Virus record (IMG/VR): IMGVR_UViG_2690316161_000025
DNA length: 44,064 nt
Strand: one strand, 5' to 3'
DNA from: a virus
Taxonomy: Duplodnaviria > Heunggongvirae > Uroviricota > Caudoviricetes
Position 1 is the first letter of the stretch. Each line of letters opens with the position of its first letter. Both the position numbers and the translations under genes were made by a program. Positions 22,383 to 44,064 of this stretch are shown here, piece by piece. The notes below the pieces were generated by a model that was given only the letters and a program-made list of their open reading frames with translations, searched no databases and was not told where the DNA came from.

Positions 22383-22391
22383 GGAGCATTT

Positions 22392-22748
22392 ATGGCTGGA
22401 AATCAGCGTCAGGGGGTGGCGTTCATCCGTGTCAATGGCATGGAGCTTGAAACGATGGAAGGTGCCTCCTTCACGCCTTCCGGTATCACCCGTGAAGAAG
22501 TGACCGGCTCGCGGGTTTATGGCTGGAAAGGTAAACCACGTGCCGCAAAGCTGGAATGCAAAATTCCGGGCGGTGGTGATATCGGTCTGGATGAAATCAT
22601 CGGCTGGGAAAACATCACGGCAGAGTTTCAGGCAGACACCGGTGAAACCTGGATGATGGCGAATGCCTGGCAGGCAGATGAACCGAAAAACGACGGCGGC
22701 GAAATTTCGCTGGTACTGATGGCAAAACAAAGCAAACGCATTGCATAA
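22392..22748 (+). CDS. M: Tail tube protein (Mu M), 118 aa
   Basis: 118-aa ORF after sheath, SD taaggagc. Confidence 0.85.
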   Translation: MAGNQRQGVAFIRVNGMELETMEGASFTPSGITREEVTGSRVYGWKGKPRAAKLECKIPGGGDIGLDEIIGWENITAEFQADTGETWMMANAWQADEPKNDGGEISLVLMAKQSKRIA

Positions 22749-22757
22749 GGGGAAACA

Positions 22758-23192
22758 ATGGACGAAATGAATTTAGGTCCTGAAGCACAGGAACTGCATG
22801 ACAGCATTGTGGCAGAAATTCAGTCCGGCGTGCTGAAACTGAAAGACGGCCTGCCGTTCGGCACCGGTGACGAGACTGAAATGCAGTATGACGTGACGCT
22901 GCGTGAACTGACCGCAGGCGATCTGATTGATGCCCAGGCGGCTGCTGAAAAGCTGGTAATGAGCAAGGAAGGCCCGGTGCTGGTCAGTTCCCCGTCCCGG
23001 ATGGGACTGGAAATGCTGCGCCGACAGATTGCCAGCGTGGGTTGCATCAAAGGCCCGTTATCGCTGGCGCTGATGCGCAAGCTGTCTGTTGATGACTTCC
23101 AGCGTCTGTCGCTGGCTACAGAAATGTACGACATGGCTGTGGCGGCATCGCTGACACAAGAACGGGGGCGAGTGGCTGCGGTGCCGGAATGA
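22758..23192 (+). CDS. Tail assembly chaperone candidate (gp41), 144 aa
   Basis: Acidic 144-aa ORF between tube and tape-measure genes. Confidence 0.55.
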   Translation: MDEMNLGPEAQELHDSIVAEIQSGVLKLKDGLPFGTGDETEMQYDVTLRELTAGDLIDAQAAAEKLVMSKEGPVLVSSPSRMGLEMLRRQIASVGCIKGPLSLALMRKLSVDDFQRLSLATEMYDMAVAASLTQERGRVAAVPE

Positions 23193-23336
23193 TATTGAGA
23201 AAGCGGCGACAGCGATTGGCGTTATTCTGAAAAGTGGCCCGGAATGGGCCTTATCCCTCCCGCTGTCCCGCTTTTTCCGGCACTGCCAGCAGGCTAAAAC
23301 CCTCTCTCAATATCACCGTTAAATCAGGAAATCTCT

Positions 23337-25412: not shown

Positions 25413-25416
25413 AACC

Positions 25417-26904
25417 ATGTTTGAAGATGCTTTAAATGCCGTTAATGCTGTCCGGGATAAAATCAGCGGTGGTAAGAAAACAACCGGCAAAGGCACGTTT
25501 CGTAACGTGCCGTTTCTCGTCATCGAGGAGCAAAAACAGGCTGGCGGACGTCGCCTGGTTAAACGCGAGTACCCGTTACGTGATACCGGCGGCGTCAATG
25601 ACCTGGGGAAAAAGCTTCGCTCCCGTACATTCAGCGCCTGCATTCTGAACAGCAACGCAGAAACAGCCAGAGATGAAGCGGGTGCGCTGATGGATGCTCT
25701 TGATGCTCCGGGTAGCGGTGAGCTGGTACATCCTGATTTCGGCACTGTGGACGTCATGGTGGATTCATGGGAATGCCGCACTAAAGCGGATGAACTGAAT
25801 TATTACGCGTTCACCGTTACCGTTTATCCGTCGTTGCAGGATACTGCCCCGGACTCAGAGACAGACACCAGTGCAGCCGTACCGGCACAGGCCGTTGCTG
25901 TAACCGGTTCTCTGGGAGATACGCTGTCCTCTGTCTGGCAGACCGTAAAAGATGGCACTGCGGCGGCAACCGCCGTGATGGAAGCTGTAACCGGTGTCAT
26001 CGATGATATCAGTGATGCGGTGGACAATCTGGGGGTTACGCAGACTGTCAGCGGTCTGATGGGATCGCTTTCTGCGATGAAAGGCTCTGTGACCAGCCTG
26101 ATTAACCAGCCTGCCATGCTGGCCTCCTCGCTGATGGGGGCGCTGTCCGGCGTTTCATCGTTATGCGATACCCGGACAGCATTTTCCACATGGAACCGTC
26201 TGGCGCAGCGATTCGAACGTCGCCATGCCGCCACCGCAGGCAGACAGGGGACAATCACAACCTCGTACAACAGTCCGGTTGCAGAAAAAAATATTGCCAC
26301 ACTGAACTACGTCATGCTGGCAGCAGCACAGACATACCGGGCGGAGGCAGCAAGCCAGGCACTGACTGCGGCACTGGATTTCAGTCGCCGGATGGATAAT
26401 GCCGCCCGTGCACCTGTACTGGATGCCCCGTCCACCACAACCGGCACAGCCAGCGGGGCCAGCAGCACATCCGCTACCGTCACACAGGGACAGTTACAGT
26501 TAACTGCCATAACCCCGGACGGCGGCTTTTCACAGGTATCCTTTTCAGACAGTGGTACAGCCACGCCCCCGGTATTTGAAAGTGTGTCCGATATCGGAAA
26601 AACAGCCGCCATGCTGGGGGCAGCGCTGGATACCGTCATTCTGACGGCATCTGAGCAGGGCTTTTCGACAGACAGCGTTCAGCTTACGCAACTGCGTCTG
26701 CTGGTTGTTGCCGACCTGGAAAAACGCGGGCTGCAACTGGCAGGCAGTGAAACGCACCGCCTGCCGGAGACGATGCCTGCAATGGTGGCTCTGTACCGTT
26801 ACACAGGAAACAGCCGGAACTGGCAACGGCTGGCCCGCAGGAACGGTATCAGCAACCCGTTGTTTGTTCCCGGTGGTGTCAGTATTGAGGTGATTAATGA
26901 GTAA
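25417..26904 (+). CDS. N: DNA circularisation protein (Mu N), 495 aa
   Basis: 495-aa ORF following tape measure; Ser/Thr/Ala-rich. Confidence 0.75.
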
Positions 26905-28036
26905 TACCGTCACGCTGCGAACGGATGGCAGGCTTTTTACCGGCTGGACGTCAGTCTCTGTCACCCGCTCCATTGAATCCGTAGCCGGATATTTTGAGCT
27001 GGGGGTGAATGTGCCACCGGGTACAGATTTATCCGGGCTGGCACCGGGGAAGGCGTTCACGCTGGAAATCGACGGGCAGATTGTCTGCACCGGTTATATC
27101 GATTCGCGGCGACGCCAGATGACCGCTGACAGCATGAAAATCACTATCGCCGGACGTGACAAAACGGCTGACCTGATTGACTGTGCTGCCGTTTACAGTG
27201 GCGGACAGTGGAAAAACCGCACACTGGAGCAGATTGCGCGTGACCTGTGCGCTCCTTATGGCGTTACCGTTCGCTGGGAGCTTTCCGATAAGGAAAGTTC
27301 GGCAGCTTTTCCCGGCTTCACGCTGGACCATTCAGAAACCGTTTATGAGGCGCTGGTGCGTGCCTCCCGCGCACGCGGTGTACTGATGACCAGCAATGCC
27401 GCAGGAGAGCTGGTATTCAGCCGGGCTGCCAGCACAGCCACTGATGAGCTGGTTCTCGGAGAAAATCTGCTGACACTGGATTTTGAGGAAGACTTCCGCG
27501 ACCGGTTCAGCGAATACACCGTCAAGGGGTATGCCCGCGCAAACGGTGCTGAGGGTGATGATATTGATGCGAAAAGTATCGTCTCCCGGAAAGGGACCGC
27601 CACTGACAGTGATGTAACCCGTTACAGACCGATGATCATCATTGCTGACAGCAAAATTACGGCGAAGGATGCACAGGCCCGCGCCCTGCGTGAGCAACGC
27701 CGCAGACTGGCAAAATCCATCACCTTTGAGGCTGAAATTGACGGATGGACTCGCAAGGACGGGCAACTCTGGATGCCGAACCTGCTGGTCACTATTGATG
27801 CCTCGAAATATGCCATCAAAACCACGGAATTACTGGTCAGCAAAGTCACCCTGATACTGAATGACCAGGACGGGCTGAAAACCCGCGTCAGCCTTGCACC
27901 ACGCGAAGGCTTTCTGGTGCCGGTTGAAAGCGACCGTAAAAACAGGAAAGGCGGCGACAGTAACGGCGGTATTGATGCGCTGGTTGAAGATTATTATCGC
28001 AGACACCCGGAGAAAACGCCGCCGTGGAAAGAGTAA
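26897..28036 (+). CDS. P: Baseplate hub protein (Mu P), 379 aa
   Basis: ORF overlapping N end; position in baseplate cluster. Confidence 0.75.
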
Positions 28037-28617
28037 ATGATTTCGCCCTGAACCGCCTGCTGACGCCGCTGATGCGTCGTGTGCGCCTGATGCTTGCGCG
28101 CGCTGTTGTTAACGTGATTAACGACGGGCGAAAGGTTCAGAACCTGCAGGTCGGCCTGCTGGATGATGAGGAATCTGATGAAGTGGAGCGCCTGCAAAAT
28201 TACGGGCATTTCAGCGTTCCCCTGCCGGGAGCAGAGGCGCTGATTGCCTGTGTAGGCGCACAACGTGATCAGGGGATTGCCGTTGTGGTGGAAGACCGCC
28301 GCTACCGCCCGACAAATCTTGAACCGGGTGATGCAGGCATTTACCACCACGAGGGGCATCGTATCAGGCTGACAAAGGACGGACGCTGCATCATTACCTG
28401 TAAAACGGTTGAGGTTTACGCTGATGAAAGTATGACCGTTGACACACCCAGAACCACGTTTACCGGCGACGTTGAGATCCAGAAAGGTCTGGGCGTTAAA
28501 GGTAAAAGCCAGTTCGACAGCAATATTACTGCCCCGGATGCCATCATCAATGGCAAATCGACGGATAAGCATATCCACCGTGGCGACAGCGGCGGAACCA
28601 CGGGGCCAATGCAATGA
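28024..28617 (+). CDS. Q: Baseplate central spike protein (Mu Q)
   Basis: GTG start 28024 overlapping P; 197 aa. Confidence 0.7.
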   Translation: MERVNDFALNRLLTPLMRRVRLMLARAVVNVINDGRKVQNLQVGLLDDEESDEVERLQNYGHFSVPLPGAEALIACVGAQRDQGIAVVVEDRRYRPTNLEPGDAGIYHHEGHRIRLTKDGRCIITCKTVEVYADESMTVDTPRTTFTGDVEIQKGLGVKGKSQFDSNITAPDAIINGKSTDKHIHRGDSGGTTGPMQ

Positions 28618-29051
28618 CCGATTTAGCCATTATCTGGACGAACGGACGCGGCGATATTGCACAGGATGGCATTGATATGCTGACCGACGACAGCCTGACA
28701 ACCGATGTGACAATCTCCCTGTTTACAGACCGGCGCGCGCTGGATTCTGACACGCTGCCGGATGGTTCAGATGATCGCCGTGGATGGTGGGGTGACAGTT
28801 ACCGCGACCGCCCCATCGGTTCGCGGTTGTGGCTGTTATCACGTGAAAAAGCCACACCGGATACGCTGGAACGCGCCAGAGGGTATGCCGAAGAGGCGCT
28901 GGAATGGCTGAAAACAGCGGGCCGGGTAAGTGCGATTAACGTCAGAGCGGAACAGTTACATCAGGGCTGGTTATACCTCTACATTGCACTGACATTACCG
29001 GATGGTTCCGTTATTCCTTATGAGTTTAAAGCAGCATTTAACGGGGTTTAA
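28614..29051 (+). CDS. V: Baseplate wedge protein, gp25/GPW-like (Mu V), 145 aa
   Basis: ATGA overlap; 145-aa product in baseplate cluster. Confidence 0.75.
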   Translation: MTDLAIIWTNGRGDIAQDGIDMLTDDSLTTDVTISLFTDRRALDSDTLPDGSDDRRGWWGDSYRDRPIGSRLWLLSREKATPDTLERARGYAEEALEWLKTAGRVSAINVRAEQLHQGWLYLYIALTLPDGSVIPYEFKAAFNGV

Positions 29052-30134
29052 ATGGCTTATTCACCACCGACATTATCATCGCTGATTGCCCGTACAGAAC
29101 AGAATATTGAACAGCGCCTGCCGGGTAGCTGGCCTCAGGCCCGTGAAAAAACGCTGAGTGCCATTGCTTATGCTCAGGCGGGCCTTGCTGCCGGTTGTCA
29201 CGAGCATATTTCATGGGTTGGACGGCAGATTATCCCGTCGACAGCAGATGAAGATGAGTTGCTGGAGCACTGCCGGTTCTGGGGCGTGCGCCGCAAACAG
29301 GCGACAGCCGCCAGCGGCCCGCTGACTGTCACCACATCGGCAGCGACCACCATTCCTGCCGGTACACGCTGGCAGCGTGCTGATGGTGTGGTTTACAGCC
29401 TGGCTGATGCCATTGTGATTGACCGTGCAGGAACGACGGAAATTACCGTTACCGCACTGGCTGCCGGTGAAGCAGGAAATACCGGTGAGAATACCCTTTT
29501 AACGTTGATCACCCCGGTTGCCTGTGTTGTTTCCGATGCCATCACTGTAAAAGGGTTTTCCGGTGGGGCTGATATTGAGAGTGCAGCGGAGCTGCTGTCA
29601 CGGCTGGAATATCGTGTCCAGTATCCTCCGTTCGGCGGTAATCAGTTTGATTATGTTCGCTGGGCGCGTGAAGTCAGCGGCGTTACCCGTGCCTGGTGTT
29701 TTCCGACATGGAAAGGCGGTGGCACAGTCGGGGTGACGTTTGTTATGGATAACCGGAGCAATATTTTTCCACAACCGGCAGACGTGGAACGCGTGGCGGA
29801 TTATATCGCCGGTCATACTGACCCGATCACCGGTCTGATTGTCGGACAGCCTGACGGTGTAAATGTCACTGTATTTGCGCCAAAGGCAAAGCCGGTAAAT
29901 CCACGGATTTATATATCACCGAAGACAGCCGAACTGAAACAGGCTATTACCCACGCCATTAATACCATGTTTTTTAATGAGGTGACGCCGGGCGGCGCAC
30001 TTGCCCCCTCCCGTATTATCCGTGCGGTGGCAGGTGTTACCGGTCTGGATGATTTTGAAGTGCGTTTCCCGACAGAGATCCAGCGTTCGGAGAATACGGA
30101 ACTGTTAACACCGGGGACAATTGAATGGCTGTAA
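29052..30134 (+). CDS. W: Baseplate J-like protein (Mu W), 360 aa
   Basis: 360-aa ORF in baseplate cluster. Confidence 0.8.
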   Translation: MAYSPPTLSSLIARTEQNIEQRLPGSWPQAREKTLSAIAYAQAGLAAGCHEHISWVGRQIIPSTADEDELLEHCRFWGVRRKQATAASGPLTVTTSAATTIPAGTRWQRADGVVYSLADAIVIDRAGTTEITVTALAAGEAGNTGENTLLTLITPVACVVSDAITVKGFSGGADIESAAELLSRLEYRVQYPPFGGNQFDYVRWAREVSGVTRAWCFPTWKGGGTVGVTFVMDNRSNIFPQPADVERVADYIAGHTDPITGLIVGQPDGVNVTVFAPKAKPVNPRIYISPKTAELKQAITHAINTMFFNEVTPGGALAPSRIIRAVAGVTGLDDFEVRFPTEIQRSENTELLTPGTIEWL

Positions 30135-30667
30135 CACCCTATCAGACGGCCTTTCTGCAATTACTGCCGTCAGGGCTTGCCTGGAATAAAAGCCCCGACA
30201 GCAAATTATCTGCGCTGGCGCAGGCCATCAGCGACGTGATTGCCACTGCGGCGGATGATGCGCGGCAAATGCTGCGGGAGCGTTTCCCGTCCACATCCCG
30301 CTGGTATCTGGGGGGGTGGGAATCATTTCTGGGGTTGCCGGACTGTACCAGCGAAAACGGCACCCTGTCCGAACGCCAGCGGGCTGCCGCGAATAAAATG
30401 CGTATGACCGGCAATCTGAGTCGGCGCTTTTATGAATGGCTGGCTGCGCAGTACGGTTTTACCGTCAGGCTGACGGATTCCACAGAAGGCCAGTGGGTTA
30501 CGCAGGTCAATATTTACGGTATTAAAAATTATCGCAACGCAACGGTGCTGGATAATGTTCTGACGCCGTTACGTGTTTATGAATCGGGTGCGCTGGAATG
30601 TTTACTGGAGAAATATAAACCCGCGCATCAGATTTATAAATTTGTTTACCATGACGGAGATAACTAA
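30125..30667 (+). CDS. R: Baseplate/tail protein (Mu R), 180 aa
   Basis: ORF overlapping W end and abutting S start. Confidence 0.7.
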   Translation: MAVTPYQTAFLQLLPSGLAWNKSPDSKLSALAQAISDVIATAADDARQMLRERFPSTSRWYLGGWESFLGLPDCTSENGTLSERQRAAANKMRMTGNLSRRFYEWLAAQYGFTVRLTDSTEGQWVTQVNIYGIKNYRNATVLDNVLTPLRVYESGALECLLEKYKPAHQIYKFVYHDGDN

Positions 30668-32022
30668 TGTTTTATATTGATAACGACAGCGGCGTAACCG
30701 TCATGCCGCCCGTATCCGCCCAGCGTAGTGCTATCGTTCGCTGGTTTTCAGAAGGTGACGGGAATAATGTTATCACATGGCCCGGCATGGACTGGTTTAA
30801 TATTGTGCAGGCGGAGTTATTAAACACGCTGGAAGAAGCCGGTATTCAACCGGATAAAACAAAATTAAACCAGCTTGCACTATCCATTAAAGCCATTATG
30901 AGCAATAACGCACTGCTGATAAAAAATAACCTCAGCGAAATTAAAACTGCCGGGGCATCAGCACAGCGTACAGCACGTGAAAATCTGGATATTTATGATG
31001 CCAGCCTGAACAAAAAAGGACTCGTTCAGCTAACCAGTGCCACTGACAGCCCCAGTGAAACGCTGGCAGCCACCGCAAAAGCGGTGAAAATTGCGATGGA
31101 TAATGCCAGTGCCCGTCTGGCAAAAGACCGGAACGGAGCAGATATTCCCAATAAGCCGCTGTTTATCCAAAACCTCGGTTTACAGGAAACGGTAAACAAG
31201 GCTGGTAACGCTGTTCAGCGTTCTGGCGATACAATGACCGGAAAACTGAATCTACCACAGACATCTGCATTCGGCGTTGATACCGATAATGCACTGGGTG
31301 GTAATTCCATTACTCTCGGAGATAACGACACTGGTATTAAACAGGGCGGAGACGGTGTCCTTTTATTCTATTCAAATGGACAACTGGCATTTGGGCTTCA
31401 ACCCGCATCTGCTGATTTTTATAAGCGGGTTGCATACATTCCTCAGGGAATAATTCCTGATGGAAGTGGCGCATTTGCAGACCAGTTGAATAATGCCACC
31501 GCGCCTTTTGTTCAGACGCAGTTTGCCTGGAATCCCACTCCTGGTGGTCATTACGTGCCGATAGTTAAGGGCTTGTCCATTCGCAATGGACAGGGCTATC
31601 CCGGCGCGGTCAGCTTTGGTTATTTGCTGACAGAACAGTATGGATTTCCGGTTCCATGTATTCATATGCGTGGCGATGGCGGTAATGATGCTTTATGGCA
31701 GTTTAACCCGAACGATAAATCTTTTATTTCACCGGGTGCTCTTGTTGCGGGTGGCATCATTTATAACACCGATGGAAATATATTTGGCGGGTGTTGGGGT
31801 TCAAATTTAGCTGATTATCTCAATAGCACATATGTAAGAGACATTCGACTTGGTAGCGCAGAATCAATATCAGCATGGCGAGGCCCTGGTTACTGGGATA
31901 CTTCTGGATATGTTCTGACCGCAGCCGGAAACAGCAACACCGATGAATTTATTGATACATTAACCAGAAGGCCTATTCAGAAGTTGATTGGTGGGACATA
32001 TTATAACGTTGTGAGTATTTGA
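30667..32022 (+). CDS. S: Tail fibre protein S (constant part Sc 30667-~31176 fused in frame to variable part Sv inside the G segment)
   Basis: 451-aa ORF; gixL lies inside the coding sequence at codons FIQNLGLQE. Confidence 0.85.
31163..31188. other. gixL, left Gin recombination site
   Basis: ttatccaaaacc-tc-ggtttacaggaa; inverted copy at 34355-34380. Confidence 0.8.
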
Positions 32023-32023
32023 C

Positions 32024-32551
32024 ATGATGCATTTAAAAAACATTAAAGCAGGGAACCCCAAAACACCTGAACAATACCAGTTAACCAAAAAAGCTGGAGT
32101 GGTCTGGCTTTATACTGAAGATGGTAAAAACTGGTACGAAGAACAAAAAAACTTTCAACCAGATACTATAAAAATTGCATACGATAAAAATAATGTGATT
32201 GTTACCGTAAGCAAAGATGTTTCAACTATTAACCCGGAAGGTTTAAGTGTTGTTGAAGTATCCGATATTACGGCAAATCGTCGCGCAGACAATAACGGAA
32301 ACTGGATGTTTCTGGATGGTAAAGTAGTAAAGCGGGAATATACAAAACAGGAGCTGCAACAGCAGGCAGAGTTACAAAAAGCCGCTTTGCTTTCCGAAGC
32401 GGAGTCTGTGATTCAACCGCTGGAACGTGCTGTCAGGCTGAATATGGCAACTAATGAGGAACGCGCACGACTGGAGTCATGGGAACGCTACAGTGTTCTG
32501 GTCAGCCGTGTGGATACGGCAAATCCTGAATGGCCACAAAAGCCTGAATAA
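32024..32551 (+). CDS. U: Tail fibre assembly protein U, 175 aa
   Basis: ATG one base after S stop; paralogue of minus-strand U'. Confidence 0.85.
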
Positions 32552-32556
32552 AAATT

Positions 32557-32576
32557 AAGGCCCGATAGCGGGCCTT
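32557..32576. terminator. Bidirectional hairpin between convergent U and U'
   Basis: aaggccc-gatagc-gggcctt; A/T run on the U' side. Confidence 0.45.
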
Positions 32577-32579
32577 GTC

Positions 32580-33113
32580 TCATTCTGGTTGTTCCGGGAA
32601 TGTTACAGGAAGAACAGAGGTATCTGTGGCATCAACCTGCTGCATGTATAACATCCAGTTAATGAGTCTTTGCCTGTCTGAATCGCTGATAATTCCCAGC
32701 GCAAGCTGTGTTTGCCAGCACTGCGTTTCCTCTCTGGCCTGTCGCAGCAAAATCTGTTTCTGAATTTCAGCCAGTTGACGTAGTTCTTCATCAGTCCGGG
32801 GGCGTTTCATGACCTTGCCATCCTGAAACACCCAGTCACCGAGAATATCGGCCCGGCGATTCGCTGTCGTGTCGGGTAATTCGACAACGCTCATTCCTTC
32901 CGGGTTAATAGACGACACATCTTTTTCAATATAGCGAATGATACCTCTGTCATCGTAAGCGATTTTTAGTGTGTCTGCCTGAAAGGCTTTTTGTGCCTCA
33001 TACCAGTTCTTACCATCTTCAGCGTAAAGCCAGATAACTCCGTGTTTCTTTGTTAACTCATACTGTTCCAGTGTTTTAGCGTTACCCGCTTTTATGTTCT
33101 TTAAGTGCATCAT
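32580..33113 (-). CDS. U': Alternative tail fibre assembly protein U' (177 aa), silent in this orientation
   Basis: Minus-strand [26 protein letters not shown]... paralogous to U. Confidence 0.85.
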   Translation of the reverse strand: MMHLKNIKAGNAKTLEQYELTKKHGVIWLYAEDGKNWYEAQKAFQADTLKIAYDDRGIIRYIEKDVSSINPEGMSVVELPDTTANRRADILGDWVFQDGKVMKRPRTDEELRQLAEIQKQILLRQAREETQCWQTQLALGIISDSDRQRLINWMLYMQQVDATDTSVLPVTFPEQPE

Positions 33114-33114
33114 A

Positions 33115-34362
33115 TTAAACGCTCGCTACATTATACCAGGTGCCATTTATATACTTTTGAACGGGTCTGTAATAAACGCCCGCTATATTATCGGCAGAGT
33201 TGGACCCTGTATCCTGAACATTAATACCAGACAATACATGACCTGACGGGCACTGGAAATTCCATGTTTGCCAGTTGTTCACACCATGATATTGCTGTGA
33301 ACCAAGACGAACATCTTTCACATAGCGGGAATCAAAATTCCCCCAGTTGCTGGGTTGTATCTGACCGTTAACAGCAAATATCACCGAGTTATCTGTATTT
33401 CGCTGACTATAGAAATGCCAGCCTGAATCATCACCAAGCTCTGCAACAGTTGGTCTTGACGAATTTCCCCACAAGCTAAATGATGCATTACGGGCAGCGG
33501 TATTTGCACTTGAAAGTGTGAAGAACTTACTTTCCCCAGCCTGAATACCCTTTAATGATCTTGCTGAACCATTTATAAAGCGGAATACATGCACACCATT
33601 AGCATAAGCATCCAGCACCCCATCACCATTTTGTTTAAACCCGGTATCGTTATCTCCTAAAACTATTGAATTTCCACCCAGGGCATTAGCCGTTCCAATC
33701 CCCAGATTTCCGCTAAAAATGGCATTAATACCGAGTATTGAGTGAGAACAATAAAACCCTCGCCCATTGTTAAAATCCAGAATGGCTTGTGCGTTCGTGC
33801 TTTCTGTCGCGGGATTAGTTGCTCCCCACTTATATGTTGTTTGACCGACAGTATAATCCTGAGTTGGAACAATAACCGTTAGCCCTTCTTCAGCAGAAAC
33901 CCGCACAGGAAAAGCCCTGCCTTCAACGTAAAAAACGCTGCATACATCATCTTCTTTAAGGCTTGTTACAATGGAATGGATTGCGCGCTCATTAGTCTGA
34001 TACGTCGAAAAATAACCTGCCGCATATGAACCACGATCAGTCCAGCCACCAGGCATTACCATTCCATTGAATTCGCAGTTATTCATTGCGTAATCACTAC
34101 TGGCACATGTGGTCGTTATAATCACTCTGGAAGCCAGCTCGCCAGTGCCGCCTGTGGAACGCCGGAAAATAACTGGATACCACTTTCCACCAATTGCATT
34201 AGACGGCGCATTAAATGCGTACTGCCGCATTCCTTTTTTCTTATCCACCTCGCCTTTGCTGTAAACATTAATGTTACTCAGGAAGCGATCCTTATCAGGA
34301 ATATCCGCGCCGTTCTGGTTTTTCTGTAATGCGCCAGAAGCCTGATTTACCGTTTCCTGCAA
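33115..34362 (-). CDS. S': S' variable part (S'v): promoterless, start-less alternative tail-fibre C-terminal module, expressed only after G inversion
   Basis: Minus-strand frame is open across gixR and would be in frame with Sc after inversion (..LQETVN.. shared at the gix site). Confidence 0.8.
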   Translation of the reverse strand: MQETVNQASGALQKNQNGADIPDKDRFLSNINVYSKGEVDKKKGMRQYAFNAPSNAIGGKWYPVIFRRSTGGTGELASRVIITTTCASSDYAMNNCEFNGMVMPGGWTDRGSYAAGYFSTYQTNERAIHSIVTSLKEDDVCSVFYVEGRAFPVRVSAEEGLTVIVPTQDYTVGQTTYKWGATNPATESTNAQAILDFNNGRGFYCSHSILGINAIFSGNLGIGTANALGGNSIVLGDNDTGFKQNGDGVLDAYANGVHVFRFINGSARSLKGIQAGESKFFTLSSANTAARNASFSLWGNSSRPTVAELGDDSGWHFYSQRNTDNSVIFAVNGQIQPSNWGNFDSRYVKDVRLGSQQYHGVNNWQTWNFQCPSGHVLSGINVQDTGSNSADNIAGVYYRPVQKYINGTWYNVASV

Positions 34363-34380
34363 ACCGAGGTTTTAGATAAT
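34355..34380. other. gixR, right Gin recombination site
   Basis: Reverse complement reads ttatctaaaacc-tc-ggtttgcaggaa. Confidence 0.8.
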
Positions 34381-34433
34381 GGCTGTTTCCGGCCTGCATG
34401 GCATGATTTGCGCTTTTAAACGGGAGATCCAGA

Positions 34434-35027
34434 GTGCTGATTGGCTATGTAAGGGTATCAACAAATGACCAGAATACAGACCTGCAACGAAACGCTCTTG
34501 TTTGTGCAGGATGTGAACAAATATTTGAAGATAAATTAAGCGGAACAAGGACAGACAGACCTGGATTAAAACGCGCTTTAAAGCGCCTTCAAAAAGGTGA
34601 CACACTTGTTGTCTGGAAACTGGATCGCCTCGGGCGAAGCATGAAACATTTGATTTCTCTCGTAGGGGAATTACGAGAGCGAGGGATTAATTTTCGCAGT
34701 CTTACTGACAGTATTGATACGTCATCTCCAATGGGGCGTTTTTTCTTCCACGTTATGGGTGCCCTGGCTGAGATGGAACGAGAACTAATCATCGAGCGAA
34801 CGATGGCTGGACTTGCTGCCGCCAGAAATAAAGGCCGTATTGGTGGGCGACCACCTAAACTAACCAAAGCGGAATGGGAGCAGGCCGGGCGTTTATTAGC
34901 ACAAGGAATCCCCCGCAAGCAGGTTGCATTGATCTACGATGTGGCCCTGTCAACTCTGTATAAAAAACACCCCGCGAAACGAACGCATATAGAAAACGAC
35001 GATCGAATCAATCAAATCGATCGGTAA
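34434..35027 (+). CDS. gin: Gin serine recombinase (DNA invertase)
   Basis: GTG start 34434 with SD gggag; product MLIGYVRVSTNDQNTDLQRNAL... with catalytic Ser at YVRVS; resolvase/invertase family. Confidence 0.95.
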   Translation: MLIGYVRVSTNDQNTDLQRNALVCAGCEQIFEDKLSGTRTDRPGLKRALKRLQKGDTLVVWKLDRLGRSMKHLISLVGELRERGINFRSLTDSIDTSSPMGRFFFHVMGALAEMERELIIERTMAGLAAARNKGRIGGRPPKLTKAEWEQAGRLLAQGIPRKQVALIYDVALSTLYKKHPAKRTHIENDDRINQIDR

Positions 35028-35035
35028 TACAGATC
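35001..35035. promoter_or_regulatory. Three clustered Dam GATC sites upstream of the mom promoter (methylation-sensitive regulatory region)
   Basis: GATC at 35001, 35019, 35032 spanning the gin stop codon. Confidence 0.6.
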
Positions 35036-35039
35036 GATT

Positions 35040-35109
35040 ATGTCTCAATAACCACACTCAACCCATGATGTTTTTTAAGATAGTGGCGAATTGATGCAAA
35101 GGAGGTGAG
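35040..35109 (+). promoter_or_regulatory. Pmom promoter / C-activator binding region, approximate
   Basis: Intergenic between gin and com; precedes SD aaggaggtgag of com. Confidence 0.45.
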
Positions 35110-35298
35110 ATGAAATCAATTCGCTGTAAAAACTGCAACAAACTGTTATTTAAGGCGGATTCCTTTGATCACATTGAAATCAGGTGTCCGCGTTGCAAAC
35201 GTCACATCATAATGCTGAATGCCTGCGAGCATCCCATGGAGAAACATTGTGGGAAAAGAGAAAAAATCACGCATTCTGACGAAACCGTGCGTTATTGA
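35110..35298 (+). CDS. com: Com, zinc-finger translational activator of mom (62 aa)
   Basis: [32 protein letters not shown]... with CxxC...CxxC; overlaps mom 5' end. Confidence 0.9.
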
Positions 35299-35944
35299 GT
35301 ATGAAGGCCAGATTGTTGGCTATGGTTCAAAGGAGCTGCGCGTTGAAACCATATCTTGCTGGCTGGCCCGCACAATTATTCAGACAAAGCACTATTCCCG
35401 CCGTTTTGTGAATAACTCTTACCTCCACCTGGGAGTATTCAGCGGACGCGATCTGGTTGGCGTTCTCCAGTGGGGATATGCCCTTAACCCCAACTCAGGT
35501 CGTCGTGTCGTGCTTGAAACGGATAACCGGGGCTATATGGAGTTGAACCGCATGTGGCTACACGACGACATGCCCCGCAACTCTGAATCACGGGCCATCA
35601 GTTATGCACTGAAAACCATAAGGTTACTGTATCCGTCAGTGGAGTGGGTTCAGTCTTTTGCAGACGAACGCTGCGGACGTGCTGGCGTTGTGTATCAGGC
35701 GTCAAATTTTGATTTTATTGGCAGCCATGAAAGCACGTTCTACGAGCTGGATGGTGAGTGGTATCACGAGATAACGATGAACGCGATTAAACGCGGTGGA
35801 CAACGAGGCGTGTATTTACGGGCTAATAAAGAGCGTGCCGTGGTGCACAAATTTAATCAGTATCGCTACATCAGGTTCCTGAACAAGCGAGCAAGGAAGC
35901 GACTAAATACCAAGCTATTCAAGGTTCAGCCATACCCTAAGTGA
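35219..35944 (+). CDS. mom: Mom DNA modification protein (adenine modification); true start may be GTG at 35249
   Basis: ORF overlapping the com 3' end in another frame; last gene before the Mu right end. Confidence 0.85.
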
Positions 35945-35964
35945 TCCCCATGTAATGAATAAAA

Positions 35965-35990
35965 AGCAGTAATTAATACTGCTGTTTCAT
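35965..35990 (+). terminator. Terminator hairpin after mom
   Basis: agcagt-aattaat-actgct followed by gtttcattt. Confidence 0.45.
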
Positions 35991-36059
35991 TTGAAGCGCG
36001 AAAGCTAAAGTTTTCGCATTTATCGTGAAACGCTTTCGCGTTTTTCGTGCGCCGCTTCA
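35990..36059. other. Mu right end (attR) with MuA end-binding sites; terminus at 36059
   Basis: Sequence tgaagcgcgaaagctaaagttttcgcatttatcgtgaaacgctttcgcgtttttcgtgcgccgcttca ends with the canonical Mu right-end terminus. Confidence 0.85.
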
Positions 36060-36157
36060 TGCGCAAAATTCACGCCACTGTCATATTTGTGAGCTACACG
36101 GGCATGTCGGTTGTACAAAAAATGTGAAGAGGAACAAATTTTTCCGCACGTTAGAGA

Positions 36158-36192
36158 CAAAAAAACCGCCTCAGGCAACATACCGGAGACGG
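36158..36192 (-). terminator. Probable rho-independent terminator downstream of pqiC
   Basis: On the minus strand, imperfect hairpin ccgtctccgg...cctgaggcgg followed by ttttttt. Confidence 0.45.
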
Positions 36193-36214
36193 TTATATTT
36201 ACAAATCTTTATAA

Positions 36215-36778
36215 TTAAGGTAGACGCTTTATCTCTTGTGCAATAGAAGCGGCTTCCTGACTCCAGACACCGGCCAGCACTTTAACCATCTCATCGTAAC
36301 CATCCTGAGTTTGCACTCCTTCCAGACGGAACGGACGTTTGATCAGTTGTCCCTGGTGGTTCAACAGCCACTCACCACTGACAATGACCTTGCCATCATA
36401 GCGACCGTTAAACTCCGTTACGGTAACATTGAGCGTGTCCTGGGCGCTTCCCAGAGGCTGGGAGGCAACCACCCAGCCGGGCAGTTGCGTACTCAGGTTG
36501 GCAACCAGGGTGTTGCGCAACTGTTGATCCAACGGGCTGGCCCACAAGTTGTTGTTGGCAATCACATACTTCACATCACTGGTTTGATAAACCACACCAT
36601 TCCCCGCCAGATAGTCAGGAACAGTGATCTGCTCTACCCATAACAGACGATTGCCCTGGCTGGCGGTACTTTGTGTACCGCTCTGCACCACAGGTAACTG
36701 GTAATAGTTTTTATTAATTTCGCCGGAGCTGCATCCGGCCAGCCACAGTGCTGCAATCGTCACTAGCCACTTTTTCAT
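36215..36778 (-). CDS. pqiC: PqiC (YmbA) lipoprotein of the Pqi intermembrane transport system, 187 aa
   Basis: MKKWLVTIAALWLAGCSSG... with lipobox LAGC; ATGA overlap with pqiB stop. Confidence 0.85.
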   Translation of the reverse strand: MKKWLVTIAALWLAGCSSGEINKNYYQLPVVQSGTQSTASQGNRLLWVEQITVPDYLAGNGVVYQTSDVKYVIANNNLWASPLDQQLRNTLVANLSTQLPGWVVASQPLGSAQDTLNVTVTEFNGRYDGKVIVSGEWLLNHQGQLIKRPFRLEGVQTQDGYDEMVKVLAGVWSQEAASIAQEIKRLP

Positions 36779-38415
36779 TGTTTCGCCCTCTTCGGCTCTG
36801 GATCTTTTTTGTCCTTCGCTTCAAATACCAGCGCGTTACTCTTCTCATTGAGCGTTTTCAGCACCGGTTGCAGTTCTCGCAACACCTGATCAAGGCGCTG
36901 CATATCCGCCACCATCTTGTTGTAGGCTGCGGAGCCAGGCTGGAAGCCCTGCATGCTGCGATTCAATTCACGCAACGTTGACTGCATATCCGTCGGCAAC
37001 TGCTGCATCGACTGGCTAGCGAGGATCTTGTTCATGCTATCCAGCGTCGTTTGCAGGTTTTTCATTGTGCGCTGACTTTCAGAAAGCGTACTGGTTGCCT
37101 GTTCAATCATCGGATTCAATGGCAGTTTGTTGATCTTATCCAACGCTTCCATCAGTCGTTGCTGGATTTGCGCCAGGCCGCCGCTAACGGTCGGGATAAT
37201 CTGATAACCATTAAATTCACGAATACCGGTTATTGCAGGCGTATTTGGATAGAAATCGAGATCAACATACAGTGCACCAGTGACCAGGTTTCCGGTTTTC
37301 AGCGATCCGCGTAAACCACGTTTCAACAATTCGCCAAGGTGCTCAACAACATCCGCATTTTCGCCAAGCTGCATTTTCAGCCGCTCTGGCTCGATACGAA
37401 TCAGTACCGGAATACGGTAATCATCGTTAAATGTCTGACGCATATTCGGCGCAAAGAATGGCACTTTGCTTACGGTACCCAGGCGAATACCCCGGAACTC
37501 TACCGGAGCTCCCGGTTGCAGACCGCGTACCGAATCTTTAAAGAACATCAGATAATCAATGTGATCGGTGTACAACGAATCCTGAATGCTCTTCTGATCA
37601 TCATACAAAACGAAAGCTGTTTTCGGTGCCACTGGCTGCCCTAAATCCAGACCTTCCGGCACATCAAAGCTGACACCGCCACTCAGCAGCGTTGTCAATG
37701 AGCCCATCTCCACACGCATCCCTGCTGACGTCAGATCAACCGCAATGCCACTATCTTTCCAGAAGCGAACATTGTTGGTCACCAGTCGGTCATAAGGTGC
37801 ATTGATGAACAGTTGATAGCTGATATTGCGTTTTTGTGTATCGAAGGTGCTGGTTTCAACCGAACCTACCCGATAGCCACGGAACAGCACCGGATCTCCT
37901 GGCGAGAGCTGCCCGGCTTTTTTGCTATCGAGAATCACACGGATACCTTTCGCATCAGGCGGGGCCAACGGTGGCGAGTCCAGCAAATCGTATTTATCCA
38001 TTTTGCTGCCTTTCGCGCCTGGCTGCAGTTCGATATAAACTCCAGACAGCAGCGTTCCCAGGCCGCTAATCCCTTCGCGACCAATCTGCGGTTTCACCAC
38101 CCAAAAGACGGTGTCTTTATGCAGCAATTTTTCCATACCGGAATTCAGCCGCGCTTTGATTTCAACGTGCGTCAAATCATCAGCCAGTGTGGCGCTTTCA
38201 ACCACGCCGACGTCAACGCTACGGCTTTTAATGGTGGTTTTGCCACCTTCAATTCCTTCCGCATTCGCGGTGATCAGGGTCACTTCCGGTCCCTGATGGC
38301 TGTAATGATAAAAAAGAACCCAGGCCCCAATGAGCGCCGTGACGATAGGAAATATCCACACGGGAGACCAGTTCTTCACTTTCTGGATTTTGGCTTCCCC
38401 ATTATTAGATTCCAT
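36775..38415 (-). CDS. pqiB: PqiB, MCE-domain periplasm-spanning protein (546 aa from MESNNGEAK...)
   Basis: Large minus-strand ORF with N-terminal TM segment and repeated MCE-like regions; ORF track start 38475 is an upstream extension. Confidence 0.85.
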   Translation of the reverse strand: MESNNGEAKIQKVKNWSPVWIFPIVTALIGAWVLFYHYSHQGPEVTLITANAEGIEGGKTTIKSRSVDVGVVESATLADDLTHVEIKARLNSGMEKLLHKDTVFWVVKPQIGREGISGLGTLLSGVYIELQPGAKGSKMDKYDLLDSPPLAPPDAKGIRVILDSKKAGQLSPGDPVLFRGYRVGSVETSTFDTQKRNISYQLFINAPYDRLVTNNVRFWKDSGIAVDLTSAGMRVEMGSLTTLLSGGVSFDVPEGLDLGQPVAPKTAFVLYDDQKSIQDSLYTDHIDYLMFFKDSVRGLQPGAPVEFRGIRLGTVSKVPFFAPNMRQTFNDDYRIPVLIRIEPERLKMQLGENADVVEHLGELLKRGLRGSLKTGNLVTGALYVDLDFYPNTPAITGIREFNGYQIIPTVSGGLAQIQQRLMEALDKINKLPLNPMIEQATSTLSESQRTMKNLQTTLDSMNKILASQSMQQLPTDMQSTLRELNRSMQGFQPGSAAYNKMVADMQRLDQVLRELQPVLKTLNEKSNALVFEAKDKKDPEPKRAKQ

Positions 38416-38419
38416 ACTG

Positions 38420-39288
38420 TCAGGACTCCTCATGCTCTGATTCAGGTTGACGATCCCACGACAAACGCGGGTCAAACGTCATAGCAGAAAACATTGTCAT
38501 TATGACGACTAAAGCAAACATTAATGCACCCATTGCCGGATAAATACTCATTAAACCTCCCATACGCACCAGCGCCGAGAGCACCGCGATAACGAAAACG
38601 TCAATCATCGACCAGCGGCCTACAAACTCAACAACTTCATAAATCAAATGCATTCTTTCACTGTCGCGCTTGCCATGCCCTTTGGCATCCCAACACAGCC
38701 ACGCGATGGCGATCATCTTTAACGTTGGCACCATAATACTGGCCAGAAAGATCACCGCAGCGACGGGATAAGAGCCTTCGCTCCATAACAGAATGACCCC
38801 AGCGAGAATCGTCGACGGCATCTTCGAGCCTAATAAATCCGTCACCATGATGGGCAAAATATTAGCCGGAAGATACAGCATGATGGACGTTACAAGCAGC
38901 GCGAGTGTCCACTGCAGGCTGTTTCTACGCCGAACGTACCCTTTGGTACTACAACGCGGGCACACGGGTTCATCAGCAGGAAGGATTGCCGTACAACAGG
39001 AGCACGAACGCAGCCCCTGACGTATCCCCGTGACGCCTGGTTTTAGCGGCTGGCGCAGTTCTGGCATCGGGGCGATGTCGTCCCATAACCAGCGACGATC
39101 AACGCACTGAAAAGCGCGCAGTTGCAGGACACAAAATAAACACCAGGGGAGAAAGCTGCTGCCTACCCCAATGCTGCCGTAAGCCATCAGTTTAACGAAA
39201 CTGACCAGCACACCAGCGAGGAAAATCTCCGCCATTCCCCAGGTTTTGAGTTGAAAAAGCACCCGTGCCAGTTGCTCTTTTAAACGGA
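38420..39288 (-). pseudogene. pqiA: pqiA, 3' portion only (about 289 C-terminal codons); 5' end replaced by Mu-derived sequence
   Basis: Minus-strand frame encodes multi-pass membrane protein with CxxC...CxxC (CSCCTA...CPRCS); the first 10 codons of the apparent ORF ([11 protein letters not shown]) are read from Mu gix/S sequence. Confidence 0.8.
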
Positions 39289-39308
39289 AAAACCTCGGTT
39301 TACAGGAA
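39283..39308. other. Chimeric gix-like site: pqiA-derived left half (aacggaaaaacc) joined to gixL core and right half
   Basis: Identity to 31169 onward begins at 39289; central tc and right half ggtttacaggaa identical to gixL. Confidence 0.75.
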
Positions 39309-40142
39309 ACGGTAAACAAGGCTGGTAACGCTGTTCAGCGTTCTGGCGATACAATGACCGGAAAACTGAATCTACCACAGACATCTGCATTCGGCGTTGA
39401 TACCGATAATGCACTGGGTGGTAATTCCATTACTCTCGGAGATAACGACACTGGTATTAAACAGGGCGGAGACGGTGTCCTTTTATTCTATTCAAATGGA
39501 CAACTGGCATTTGGGCTTCAACCCGCATCTGCTGATTTTTATAAGCGGGTTGCATACATTCCTCAGGGAATAATTCCTGATGGAAGTGGCGCATTTGCAG
39601 ACCAGTTGAATAATGCCACCGCGCCTTTTGTTCAGACGCAGTTTGCCTGGAATCCCACTCCTGGTGGTCATTACGTGCCGATAGTTAAGGGCTTGTCCAT
39701 TCGCAATGGACAGGGCTATCCCGGCGCGGTCAGCTTTGGTTATTTGCTGACAGAACAGTATGGATTTCCGGTTCCATGTATTCATATGCGTGGCGATGGC
39801 GGTAATGATGCTTTATGGCAGTTTAACCCGAACGATAAATCTTTTATTTCACCGGGTGCTCTTGTTGCGGGTGGCATCATTTATAACACCGATGGAAATA
39901 TATTTGGCGGGTGTTGGGGTTCAAATTTAGCTGATTATCTCAATAGCACATATGTAAGAGACATTCGACTTGGTAGCGCAGAATCAATATCAGCATGGCG
40001 AGGCCCTGGTTACTGGGATACTTCTGGATATGTTCTGACCGCAGCCGGAAACAGCAACACCGATGAATTTATTGATACATTAACCAGAAGGCCTATTCAG
40101 AAGTTGATTGGTGGGACATATTATAACGTTGTGAGTATTTGA
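39289..40142 (+). CDS. S: Sv variable part of tail fibre S (copy 2), no upstream constant part or start
   Basis: Identical to 31169-32022; frame enters from pqiA-antisense sequence. Confidence 0.7.
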
Positions 40143-40143
40143 C

Positions 40144-40671
40144 ATGATGCATTTAAAAAACATTAAAGCAGGGAACCCCAAAACACCTGAACAATACCAG
40201 TTAACCAAAAAAGCTGGAGTGGTCTGGCTTTATACTGAAGATGGTAAAAACTGGTACGAAGAACAAAAAAACTTTCAACCAGATACTATAAAAATTGCAT
40301 ACGATAAAAATAATGTGATTGTTACCGTAAGCAAAGATGTTTCAACTATTAACCCGGAAGGTTTAAGTGTTGTTGAAGTATCCGATATTACGGCAAATCG
40401 TCGCGCAGACAATAACGGAAACTGGATGTTTCTGGATGGTAAAGTAGTAAAGCGGGAATATACAAAACAGGAGCTGCAACAGCAGGCAGAGTTACAAAAA
40501 GCCGCTTTGCTTTCCGAAGCGGAGTCTGTGATTCAACCGCTGGAACGTGCTGTCAGGCTGAATATGGCAACTAATGAGGAACGCGCACGACTGGAGTCAT
40601 GGGAACGCTACAGTGTTCTGGTCAGCCGTGTGGATACGGCAAATCCTGAATGGCCACAAAAGCCTGAATAA
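40144..40671 (+). CDS. U: Tail fibre assembly protein U (copy 2)
   Basis: Identical to 32024-32551. Confidence 0.85.
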
Positions 40672-40699
40672 AAATTAAGGCCCGATAGCGGGCCTTGTC

Positions 40700-41233
40700 T
40701 CATTCTGGTTGTTCCGGGAATGTTACAGGAAGAACAGAGGTATCTGTGGCATCAACCTGCTGCATGTATAACATCCAGTTAATGAGTCTTTGCCTGTCTG
40801 AATCGCTGATAATTCCCAGCGCAAGCTGTGTTTGCCAGCACTGCGTTTCCTCTCTGGCCTGTCGCAGCAAAATCTGTTTCTGAATTTCAGCCAGTTGACG
40901 TAGTTCTTCATCAGTCCGGGGGCGTTTCATGACCTTGCCATCCTGAAACACCCAGTCACCGAGAATATCGGCCCGGCGATTCGCTGTCGTGTCGGGTAAT
41001 TCGACAACGCTCATTCCTTCCGGGTTAATAGACGACACATCTTTTTCAATATAGCGAATGATACCTCTGTCATCGTAAGCGATTTTTAGTGTGTCTGCCT
41101 GAAAGGCTTTTTGTGCCTCATACCAGTTCTTACCATCTTCAGCGTAAAGCCAGATAACTCCGTGTTTCTTTGTTAACTCATACTGTTCCAGTGTTTTAGC
41201 GTTACCCGCTTTTATGTTCTTTAAGTGCATCAT
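40700..41233 (-). CDS. U': U' (copy 2)
   Basis: Identical to 32580-33113. Confidence 0.85.
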   Translation of the reverse strand: MMHLKNIKAGNAKTLEQYELTKKHGVIWLYAEDGKNWYEAQKAFQADTLKIAYDDRGIIRYIEKDVSSINPEGMSVVELPDTTANRRADILGDWVFQDGKVMKRPRTDEELRQLAEIQKQILLRQAREETQCWQTQLALGIISDSDRQRLINWMLYMQQVDATDTSVLPVTFPEQPE

Positions 41234-41234
41234 A

Positions 41235-42482
41235 TTAAACGCTCGCTACATTATACCAGGTGCCATTTATATACTTTTGAACGGGTCTGTAATAAACGCC
41301 CGCTATATTATCGGCAGAGTTGGACCCTGTATCCTGAACATTAATACCAGACAATACATGACCTGACGGGCACTGGAAATTCCATGTTTGCCAGTTGTTC
41401 ACACCATGATATTGCTGTGAACCAAGACGAACATCTTTCACATAGCGGGAATCAAAATTCCCCCAGTTGCTGGGTTGTATCTGACCGTTAACAGCAAATA
41501 TCACCGAGTTATCTGTATTTCGCTGACTATAGAAATGCCAGCCTGAATCATCACCAAGCTCTGCAACAGTTGGTCTTGACGAATTTCCCCACAAGCTAAA
41601 TGATGCATTACGGGCAGCGGTATTTGCACTTGAAAGTGTGAAGAACTTACTTTCCCCAGCCTGAATACCCTTTAATGATCTTGCTGAACCATTTATAAAG
41701 CGGAATACATGCACACCATTAGCATAAGCATCCAGCACCCCATCACCATTTTGTTTAAACCCGGTATCGTTATCTCCTAAAACTATTGAATTTCCACCCA
41801 GGGCATTAGCCGTTCCAATCCCCAGATTTCCGCTAAAAATGGCATTAATACCGAGTATTGAGTGAGAACAATAAAACCCTCGCCCATTGTTAAAATCCAG
41901 AATGGCTTGTGCGTTCGTGCTTTCTGTCGCGGGATTAGTTGCTCCCCACTTATATGTTGTTTGACCGACAGTATAATCCTGAGTTGGAACAATAACCGTT
42001 AGCCCTTCTTCAGCAGAAACCCGCACAGGAAAAGCCCTGCCTTCAACGTAAAAAACGCTGCATACATCATCTTCTTTAAGGCTTGTTACAATGGAATGGA
42101 TTGCGCGCTCATTAGTCTGATACGTCGAAAAATAACCTGCCGCATATGAACCACGATCAGTCCAGCCACCAGGCATTACCATTCCATTGAATTCGCAGTT
42201 ATTCATTGCGTAATCACTACTGGCACATGTGGTCGTTATAATCACTCTGGAAGCCAGCTCGCCAGTGCCGCCTGTGGAACGCCGGAAAATAACTGGATAC
42301 CACTTTCCACCAATTGCATTAGACGGCGCATTAAATGCGTACTGCCGCATTCCTTTTTTCTTATCCACCTCGCCTTTGCTGTAAACATTAATGTTACTCA
42401 GGAAGCGATCCTTATCAGGAATATCCGCGCCGTTCTGGTTTTTCTGTAATGCGCCAGAAGCCTGATTTACCGTTTCCTGCAA
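41235..42482 (-). CDS. S': S'v (copy 2)
   Basis: Identical to 33115-34362. Confidence 0.8.
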   Translation of the reverse strand: MQETVNQASGALQKNQNGADIPDKDRFLSNINVYSKGEVDKKKGMRQYAFNAPSNAIGGKWYPVIFRRSTGGTGELASRVIITTTCASSDYAMNNCEFNGMVMPGGWTDRGSYAAGYFSTYQTNERAIHSIVTSLKEDDVCSVFYVEGRAFPVRVSAEEGLTVIVPTQDYTVGQTTYKWGATNPATESTNAQAILDFNNGRGFYCSHSILGINAIFSGNLGIGTANALGGNSIVLGDNDTGFKQNGDGVLDAYANGVHVFRFINGSARSLKGIQAGESKFFTLSSANTAARNASFSLWGNSSRPTVAELGDDSGWHFYSQRNTDNSVIFAVNGQIQPSNWGNFDSRYVKDVRLGSQQYHGVNNWQTWNFQCPSGHVLSGINVQDTGSNSADNIAGVYYRPVQKYINGTWYNVASV

Positions 42483-42500
42483 ACCGAGGTTTTAGATAAT
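42475..42500. other. gixR (copy 2)
   Basis: Identical to 34355-34380. Confidence 0.8.
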
Positions 42501-42553
42501 GGCTGTTTCCGGCCTGCATGGCATGATTTGCGCTTTTAAACGGGAGATCCAGA

Positions 42554-43147
42554 GTGCTGATTGGCTATGTAAGGGTATCAACAAATGACCAGAATACAGA
42601 CCTGCAACGAAACGCTCTTGTTTGTGCAGGATGTGAACAAATATTTGAAGATAAATTAAGCGGAACAAGGACAGACAGACCTGGATTAAAACGCGCTTTA
42701 AAGCGCCTTCAAAAAGGTGACACACTTGTTGTCTGGAAACTGGATCGCCTCGGGCGAAGCATGAAACATTTGATTTCTCTCGTAGGGGAATTACGAGAGC
42801 GAGGGATTAATTTTCGCAGTCTTACTGACAGTATTGATACGTCATCTCCAATGGGGCGTTTTTTCTTCCACGTTATGGGTGCCCTGGCTGAGATGGAACG
42901 AGAACTAATCATCGAGCGAACGATGGCTGGACTTGCTGCCGCCAGAAATAAAGGCCGTATTGGTGGGCGACCACCTAAACTAACCAAAGCGGAATGGGAG
43001 CAGGCCGGGCGTTTATTAGCACAAGGAATCCCCCGCAAGCAGGTTGCATTGATCTACGATGTGGCCCTGTCAACTCTGTATAAAAAACACCCCGCGAAAC
43101 GAACGCATATAGAAAACGACGATCGAATCAATCAAATCGATCGGTAA
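42554..43147 (+). CDS. gin: Gin serine recombinase (copy 2)
   Basis: Identical to 34434-35027. Confidence 0.95.
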   Translation: MLIGYVRVSTNDQNTDLQRNALVCAGCEQIFEDKLSGTRTDRPGLKRALKRLQKGDTLVVWKLDRLGRSMKHLISLVGELRERGINFRSLTDSIDTSSPMGRFFFHVMGALAEMERELIIERTMAGLAAARNKGRIGGRPPKLTKAEWEQAGRLLAQGIPRKQVALIYDVALSTLYKKHPAKRTHIENDDRINQIDR

Positions 43148-43229
43148 TACAGATCGATTATGTCTCAATAACCACACTCAACCCATGATGTTTTTTAAGA
43201 TAGTGGCGAATTGATGCAAAGGAGGTGAG

Positions 43230-43418
43230 ATGAAATCAATTCGCTGTAAAAACTGCAACAAACTGTTATTTAAGGCGGATTCCTTTGATCACATTGAAAT
43301 CAGGTGTCCGCGTTGCAAACGTCACATCATAATGCTGAATGCCTGCGAGCATCCCATGGAGAAACATTGTGGGAAAAGAGAAAAAATCACGCATTCTGAC
43401 GAAACCGTGCGTTATTGA
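43230..43418 (+). CDS. com: Com (copy 2)
   Basis: Identical to 35110-35298. Confidence 0.9.
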
Positions 43419-44064
43419 GTATGAAGGCCAGATTGTTGGCTATGGTTCAAAGGAGCTGCGCGTTGAAACCATATCTTGCTGGCTGGCCCGCACAATTATT
43501 CAGACAAAGCACTATTCCCGCCGTTTTGTGAATAACTCTTACCTCCACCTGGGAGTATTCAGCGGACGCGATCTGGTTGGCGTTCTCCAGTGGGGATATG
43601 CCCTTAACCCCAACTCAGGTCGTCGTGTCGTGCTTGAAACGGATAACCGGGGCTATATGGAGTTGAACCGCATGTGGCTACACGACGACATGCCCCGCAA
43701 CTCTGAATCACGGGCCATCAGTTATGCACTGAAAACCATAAGGTTACTGTATCCGTCAGTGGAGTGGGTTCAGTCTTTTGCAGACGAACGCTGCGGACGT
43801 GCTGGCGTTGTGTATCAGGCGTCAAATTTTGATTTTATTGGCAGCCATGAAAGCACGTTCTACGAGCTGGATGGTGAGTGGTATCACGAGATAACGATGA
43901 ACGCGATTAAACGCGGTGGACAACGAGGCGTGTATTTACGGGCTAATAAAGAGCGTGCCGTGGTGCACAAATTTAATCAGTATCGCTACATCAGGTTCCT
44001 GAACAAGCGAGCAAGGAAGCGACTAAATACCAAGCTATTCAAGGTTCAGCCATACCCTAAGTGA
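43339..44064 (+). CDS. mom: Mom (copy 2); window ends at its stop codon
   Basis: Identical to 35219-35944. Confidence 0.85.

Follow-up and report, generated by a model that had tools for sequence, protein, structure and literature searches.

The Mu right end and the pqiC-rmf spacer

The window, by which we mean the whole 44,064-bp stretch of DNA that was analyzed, carries a Mu-like prophage that runs into host DNA. Its first base is that of the ner ATG, and its last is the final base of the stop codon in a second mom gene; these ends at gene edges suggest that the stretch was cut by a provirus predictor. Immediately before its start comes about 1.1 kb with the repressor gene c and attL. The last gene of the prophage is mom (35219–35944, plus strand), a 241-aa open reading frame (231 aa from the Mu-type start) in a region 97% identical to Mu, and identical products carry the Pfam domain Mom (PF25680). 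It is followed by the non-coding right-end region of Mu, attR (35945–36059, plus strand), which ends in ...CGCCGCTTCA.

A gap-free alignment of Mu (AF083977, 35658–36717) with window positions 35000–36059 stopped at the terminal base of Mu, as the first-pass annotation had proposed in placing the terminus at 36059, and the alignment of the same positions also reached the last base of SfMu (37146). The terminal 78 bp of the prophage, with the tail ...CGTGCGCCGCTTCA (also written ...GAAGCGCGAAAGCTAAAGTTTTCGCATTTATCGTGAAACGCTTTCGCGTTTTTCGTGCGCCGCTTCA), were identical to the Mu right end in AF083977; this is the stretch that in Mu holds the MuA transposase sites R1–R3. The right terminus reads 5'-...TTCA-3' within Mu right-end sequence, MuA transposase and MuB are both encoded (the Pfam domains of the Mu transposase and of MuB are annotated on identical proteins), and the host DNA is collinear with the uninterrupted locus up to the terminal base. 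The boundary at 36059/36060 is thus a genuine attR junction of a Mu-like transposable prophage, of the ordinary type. It is a textbook Mu end, and nothing in it departs from known Mu biology. Because the terminal A of Mu is the same as the next host base, the position of the junction is ambiguous by 1 bp.

The host DNA from this junction to 39288 matched thousands of E. coli genomes with 100% identity and comprises the rmf-pqiC spacer, pqiC, pqiB, and the 3' part of pqiA. For comparison, we used the uninterrupted locus of E. coli ATCC 8739 (L001; the window position is the L001 position plus 33058), in which the gene order is fabA, rmf, pqiC, pqiB, pqiA, uup. There, the rmf ATG lies at 2901 and pqiC ends at 3157, giving a spacer of 255 bp. 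The insertion falls between L001 3001 and 3002, at a distance of 100 bp to the rmf ATG on one side and 155 bp to the stop codon of pqiC on the other. This comparison bore out the proposal that the prophage sits in the pqiC-rmf intergenic region, and the distance of 155 bp from the Mu terminus to the stop codon of pqiC, also proposed earlier, proved exact from the coordinates of the pqiC open reading frame. The first five host bases, TGCGC (36060–36064), were read in the window as annotated; they equal L001 3002–3006, lie 101–105 bp upstream of the rmf start codon, and are the expected right copy of the 5-bp target-site duplication.

On the basis of host identity, open reading frames and the annotation of identical regions, pqiC (187 aa, 36215–36778, minus strand) and pqiB (546 aa, 36775–38415, minus strand) are intact, whereas the 3' part of pqiA (38420–39287, minus strand) is cut by a contig end; native pqiA goes on as ACCGGTAATT... 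A terminator scan identified an intrinsic terminator after pqiC (36158–36194, minus strand), AACCGUCUCCGG...CCUGAGGCGGUU followed by a U-run, so that the pqi terminator is indeed kept on the host side. Its G+C-rich hairpin is predicted to begin 20 nt past the stop codon, and the 75-nt stretch that holds it folded as RNA with -20.1 kcal/mol (z = -2.4). An Rfam search of 35800–36400 gave no match above threshold. Judged by this layout, pqiABC and its predicted terminator appear to have been left untouched by the insertion.

The prophage has the same gene order from ner to mom as Mu (Muvirus mu, AF083977), with 97–98% identity over about 31 kb, and the parts that aligned at this level were 1–31241 and 34282–36059. 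Like Mu, it encodes MuA, MuB, an invertible G segment, gin, com, and mom, and it occupies many unrelated chromosomal sites with 5-bp duplications. Unlike the rest of the genome, the tail-fibre/G-segment cassette at 31241–34282 (variable S and S', plus U and U') was only about 69–73% identical to that of Mu; S is 451 aa long here and 504 aa long in Mu, and only 5 contigs of a large collection carried exactly this S protein. The region has the look of a different host-range cassette carried by a genome that is otherwise Mu-like. A further difference is a replacement of about 290 bp in the early region (6566–6859), which has no counterpart in reference Mu. This stretch lies inside a 102-aa open reading frame (6557–6865) that is common to other Mu-like prophages. 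The early region from ner rightwards, which was compared with that of Mu, was 97% identical to it. At the right end, the Shigella phage SfMu was 97.6% identical, and the Escherichia phage D108 was 98.9% identical over the aligned part, which stopped about 120 bp short of the end (query 1–938). The G segment is bounded by the inverted repeats gixL (31163–31188) and gixR (34354–34379). It was in the opposite orientation in the sister draft JHSN01000027.1, indicating that Gin-mediated inversion is active in the lineage.

The apparent 8,120-bp repeat downstream of the junction

In the window, the host DNA gives way after only 3.2 kb to what looks like a second, partial Mu copy. Positions 39289–44064 (plus strand) are an exact copy of 31169–35944 (0 mismatches over 4,776 bp, offset 8120 bp), containing the G segment, gin, com, and mom, and the first base of this redundant copy is also that of the gix core AAAACCTCGGTTT. 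Taken literally, pqiA is cut at 39288 and fused to gixL, which amounts to an 8,120-bp tandem duplication. The source record (GCA_001285845.1, CYBY01000018.1) is arranged in the same way, and its second unit leads into intact pqiA, uup, and rlmL. When the record was compared with window positions 29354–44064, the sole difference over 14,711 bp was at base 39288, which is A in the window and N in the record; at the join, the record reads ...TTTTAAACGG N AAAACCTCGGTTTACAGG... The joint is therefore a scaffold gap of one N rather than determined sequence.

The point at which the second piece begins is the edge of the 13-bp core AAAACCTCGGTTT common to gixL and gixR, exactly where the two possible outer flanks (TTATCC and TTATCT) cease to differ. 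A culture mixed for the orientation of the G segment would produce an assembly graph that branches at this core, and a de Bruijn contig would end there; we conclude that two redundant contigs were joined head to tail by the scaffolder across a single N. A comparable event was found in the sister draft CYCB01000036.1, of the same accession prefix, where a single-N join occurs at the other edge of the core (...AAAACCTCGGTTT N, followed by the middle of the tape-measure gene) and where the gix site at the contig end carries poly-T garbage, with 12 T replacing part of it (L015, 3222–3224 and 13695–13710). The join and the T run in CYCB01000036.1 are assembly errors at the invertible segment. The joint in our window resembles the known single-N joins made by scaffolders at the boundaries of inverted repeats and invertible segments, having the same single N and the same break at the edge of the gix core; unlike the usual joins of this kind, it shows an A in place of the N and so looks continuous.

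The literal reading, in which 31169–39288 is truly repeated from 39289 with a pqiA-gixL joint produced by Gin or by illegitimate recombination, has some points on its side: the window is continuous with two 100% identical copies, the record contains a full second unit followed by intact pqiA, and the joint falls inside a recombination site. We nevertheless consider a real duplication very unlikely. The joint base is N in CYBY01000018.1, and the boundary coincides with a branch point of the assembly graph, at the same core where the sister assembly has its single-N misjoin. An origin through Gin was examined and rejected, as identity to Mu sets in 6 bp left of the crossover dinucleotide (the central TC) and the native gene pqiA reads AACGGACCGGTA at the joint, without a gix-like half-site, so that the left half-site is not host-derived; nor is there microhomology between pqiA and gix at the joint. 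Short-read assembly would merge the two units of a genuine 8-kb tandem repeat into one instead of giving both. Moreover, the junction occurs in one assembly only, whereas the sister draft JHRP01000021.1 was 100% identical to window positions 20667–39288 and then continued into intact pqiA, uup, and rlmL with no repeat. The pqiA/gix junction was absent from the sister assemblies, from other contigs with truncated PqiA, and from viral contigs, and no record was found for the chimeric 299-aa open reading frame. When PqiA truncated to 271 aa or 280 aa was looked up, most matches were frameshifted pqiA genes in their native context.

With an N as the joint base and a joint that was not reproduced in other assemblies, the second Mu copy at 39289–44064 is a scaffolding artefact and not biology. 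The truncated pqiA (38420–39287) and the truncated S open reading frame (39354–40142) are scaffold artefacts as well. Most likely, the real genome has a single copy in the order Mu, attR, pqiC, pqiB, intact pqiA, and uup. Any finding that rests on the second Mu copy, on the pqiA::gix fusion, or on truncated S (39289–40142) should be discarded. The practical value of this result is a warning, in that an N rendered as A can mimic an 8.1-kb tandem duplication together with a truncated pqiA.

Origin and distribution of the insertion

The right flank, TGCGCAAAATTC, was identical in four draft assemblies (JHRP01000021.1, JHSN01000027.1, CYCB01000036.1, and CYBY01000018.1), all of which have the same junction, namely Mu ending in ...CTTCA followed directly by TGCGCAAAATTCACGCC. 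The rmf-site junction was found in 0 of 5,426 complete E. coli genomes. Its presence in the four drafts and its absence from the complete genomes indicate that the junction marks one lineage, and in this respect the prophage differs from reference Mu, the pqiC-rmf site having been seen only in this one lineage of draft genomes.

Mu inserts almost at random. Among the places listed, the same phage was present at 10 different host sites, one of them on the 168-kb plasmid CP024297.1 (L053), and several copies were 100% identical to the window over 10–16 kb (among loci L040, L033, L053, L013, L044, L031, L058, and L035). Wherever both flanks were in hand, which was the case for four other insertions, the phage was bordered by perfect 5-bp duplications (GCGAT, CTGAC, CCGGA, and CTGGC), indicating that it is an active Mu-type transposon that makes canonical duplications. 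The target consensus of Mu is loose, N-Y-(G/C)-R-N. The four sister duplications fit it fully, and TGCGC fits two of its three informative positions, a partial fit that is compatible with a real insertion.

On plasmid CP024297.1 (L013, L030, and L053), we observed Mu right-end segments near 15.6 kb and near 145.8 kb. Both adjoin IS66 copies, and the flank CTGACATATT is common to both; the two segments could reflect either a further, partial copy or a part of the record that is duplicated or overlapping.

The predicted attL of the copy at the rmf site is ...CTGCCGTCAATGCGC/TGTATTGATTCACTTG, with the host side also given as ...GCCGTCAATGCGC; in its longer form, it is ...ATCATAACTGCCGTCAATGCGC/TGTATTGATTCACTTGAAG. 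An exact search for ACTGCCGTCAATGCGC/TGTATTGATTCACTTG gave 0 matches in the viral, metagenome, and species-representative (one genome per species) collections, and an exact search for the attR junction in viral contigs gave none. The negative results for attL say little, because the representatives hold one genome per species and because the attR of the lineage is absent from the viral contigs too.

These observations are best explained by MuA/MuB transposition of a Mu-like phage into the 255-bp pqiC-rmf spacer of an E. coli strain, with TGCGC as the target, an insertion that would then have been inherited in one E. coli lineage. We assign a probability of about 85% to this reading as a whole, that is, a simple transposition into the spacer, inheritance in one lineage, and a downstream repeat that is an artefact. 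It carries the expectation that rmf adjoins the Mu left end. That expectation would fail if the left flank were unrelated host DNA, brought there by a Mu-mediated inversion, a deletion, or another rearrangement, in which case rmf would not lie beside attL and TGCGC would not be duplicated. The attL of the rmf-site copy lies outside the window, and TGCGC is suboptimal by the target consensus, but we regard such a rearrangement as quite unlikely, given that the four other insertions of this phage are simple ones with 5-bp duplications and that the junction is kept in several related isolates, which suggests a stable, inherited, simple insertion. Furthermore, by coordinate arithmetic, the rmf-site contigs should extend about 18–30 kb past the expected left end.

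Mu virions carry 0.5–3 kb of host DNA at their right end, and the host stretch in the window runs for only 3.2 kb before the join, which raises the question of whether the junction represents host DNA packaged at the variable virion end or an assembly chimera. This is extremely unlikely. The identical junction is present in four assemblies with two accession prefixes (JH.. and CY..). Variable virion ends differ from one another, and their heterogeneity would keep them from being assembled into a single flank. Past the junction, JHRP01000021.1 continues as collinear chromosome for at least 6 kb (pqiCBA, uup, and rlmL), and about 22 kb more is expected from the coordinates. Under the preferred reading of a simple, inherited transposition, the biological weight of the junction is small, as it adds one more natural Mu insertion, inherited in a small E. 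coli lineage.

The rmf upstream region

Yoshida et al. (PMC6134199) described the rmf-pqiC spacer as 256 bp long, with a single RpoD promoter whose transcription start lies 58 bp upstream of the initiation codon, and with activator sites generally located between -180 and -30. Relative to this published start, the Mu insertion lies at about -43 to -47. The rmf strand reads GCGCA followed immediately by TTGACG, a 17-nt spacer, and TATTGC, so that the -35-like TTGACG directly adjoins the target pentamer. The assignment of these hexamers to rmf is tentative, because a strict sigma-70 promoter scan did not call the TTGACG-17-TATTGC pair as the rmf promoter and because the start predicted from the pair (about -65) is some 7 nt off the published -58.

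The attR side of the spacer (36060–36214, 155 bp) carries the pqiC terminator together with the distal upstream regulatory region of rmf (36060–36157, minus strand, about -43 to -140 from the start), which was 100% identical to the uninterrupted spacer and is cut off from rmf. Within it, the 16-mer TGTGAAGAGGAACAAA at 36123–36138 resembles the CRP consensus, agreeing at 8 of 10 consensus positions, and it is the only such 16-mer in the spacer. The comparison with the uninterrupted spacer thus agreed with the earlier suggestion that the prophage separates rmf from its native context, most of its upstream region being parted from it by the prophage. The core promoter of rmf (-35/-10) should stay with the gene, 37 kb away beside the Mu left end. 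This end would take the place of everything beyond about -47, so that some 155 bp of regulatory DNA upstream, including the CRP-like site, would be disconnected. Because the upstream activator-binding region would be lost in this way, rmf regulation was probably altered but not abolished by the insertion, as far as can be judged from the arrangement of sites.

Transcription of the Mu repressor gene c runs outward to the Mu left end, which would put rmf downstream of c, and in an identical prophage copy a simple scan of the stretch from c to this end found no terminator-like site. It is conceivable, though unlikely, that the ribosome-hibernation gene rmf has lost the inputs of cAMP-CRP and stress regulators, owes part of its transcription to read-through from the promoter of the prophage repressor, and is meaningfully affected in its function. 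If so, read-through into rmf would couple ribosome hibernation to lysogeny. Short of this, the insertion may dampen or rewire the induction of rmf in stationary phase, which would be a curiosity at the strain level. In the 5' leader of rmf, outside the window (L001 2944–2966), the terminator scan also flagged a hairpin, GTGATTGCACATTTAGTAATCAC, followed by a T-rich run; this hairpin lies at or just downstream of the published transcription start of rmf.
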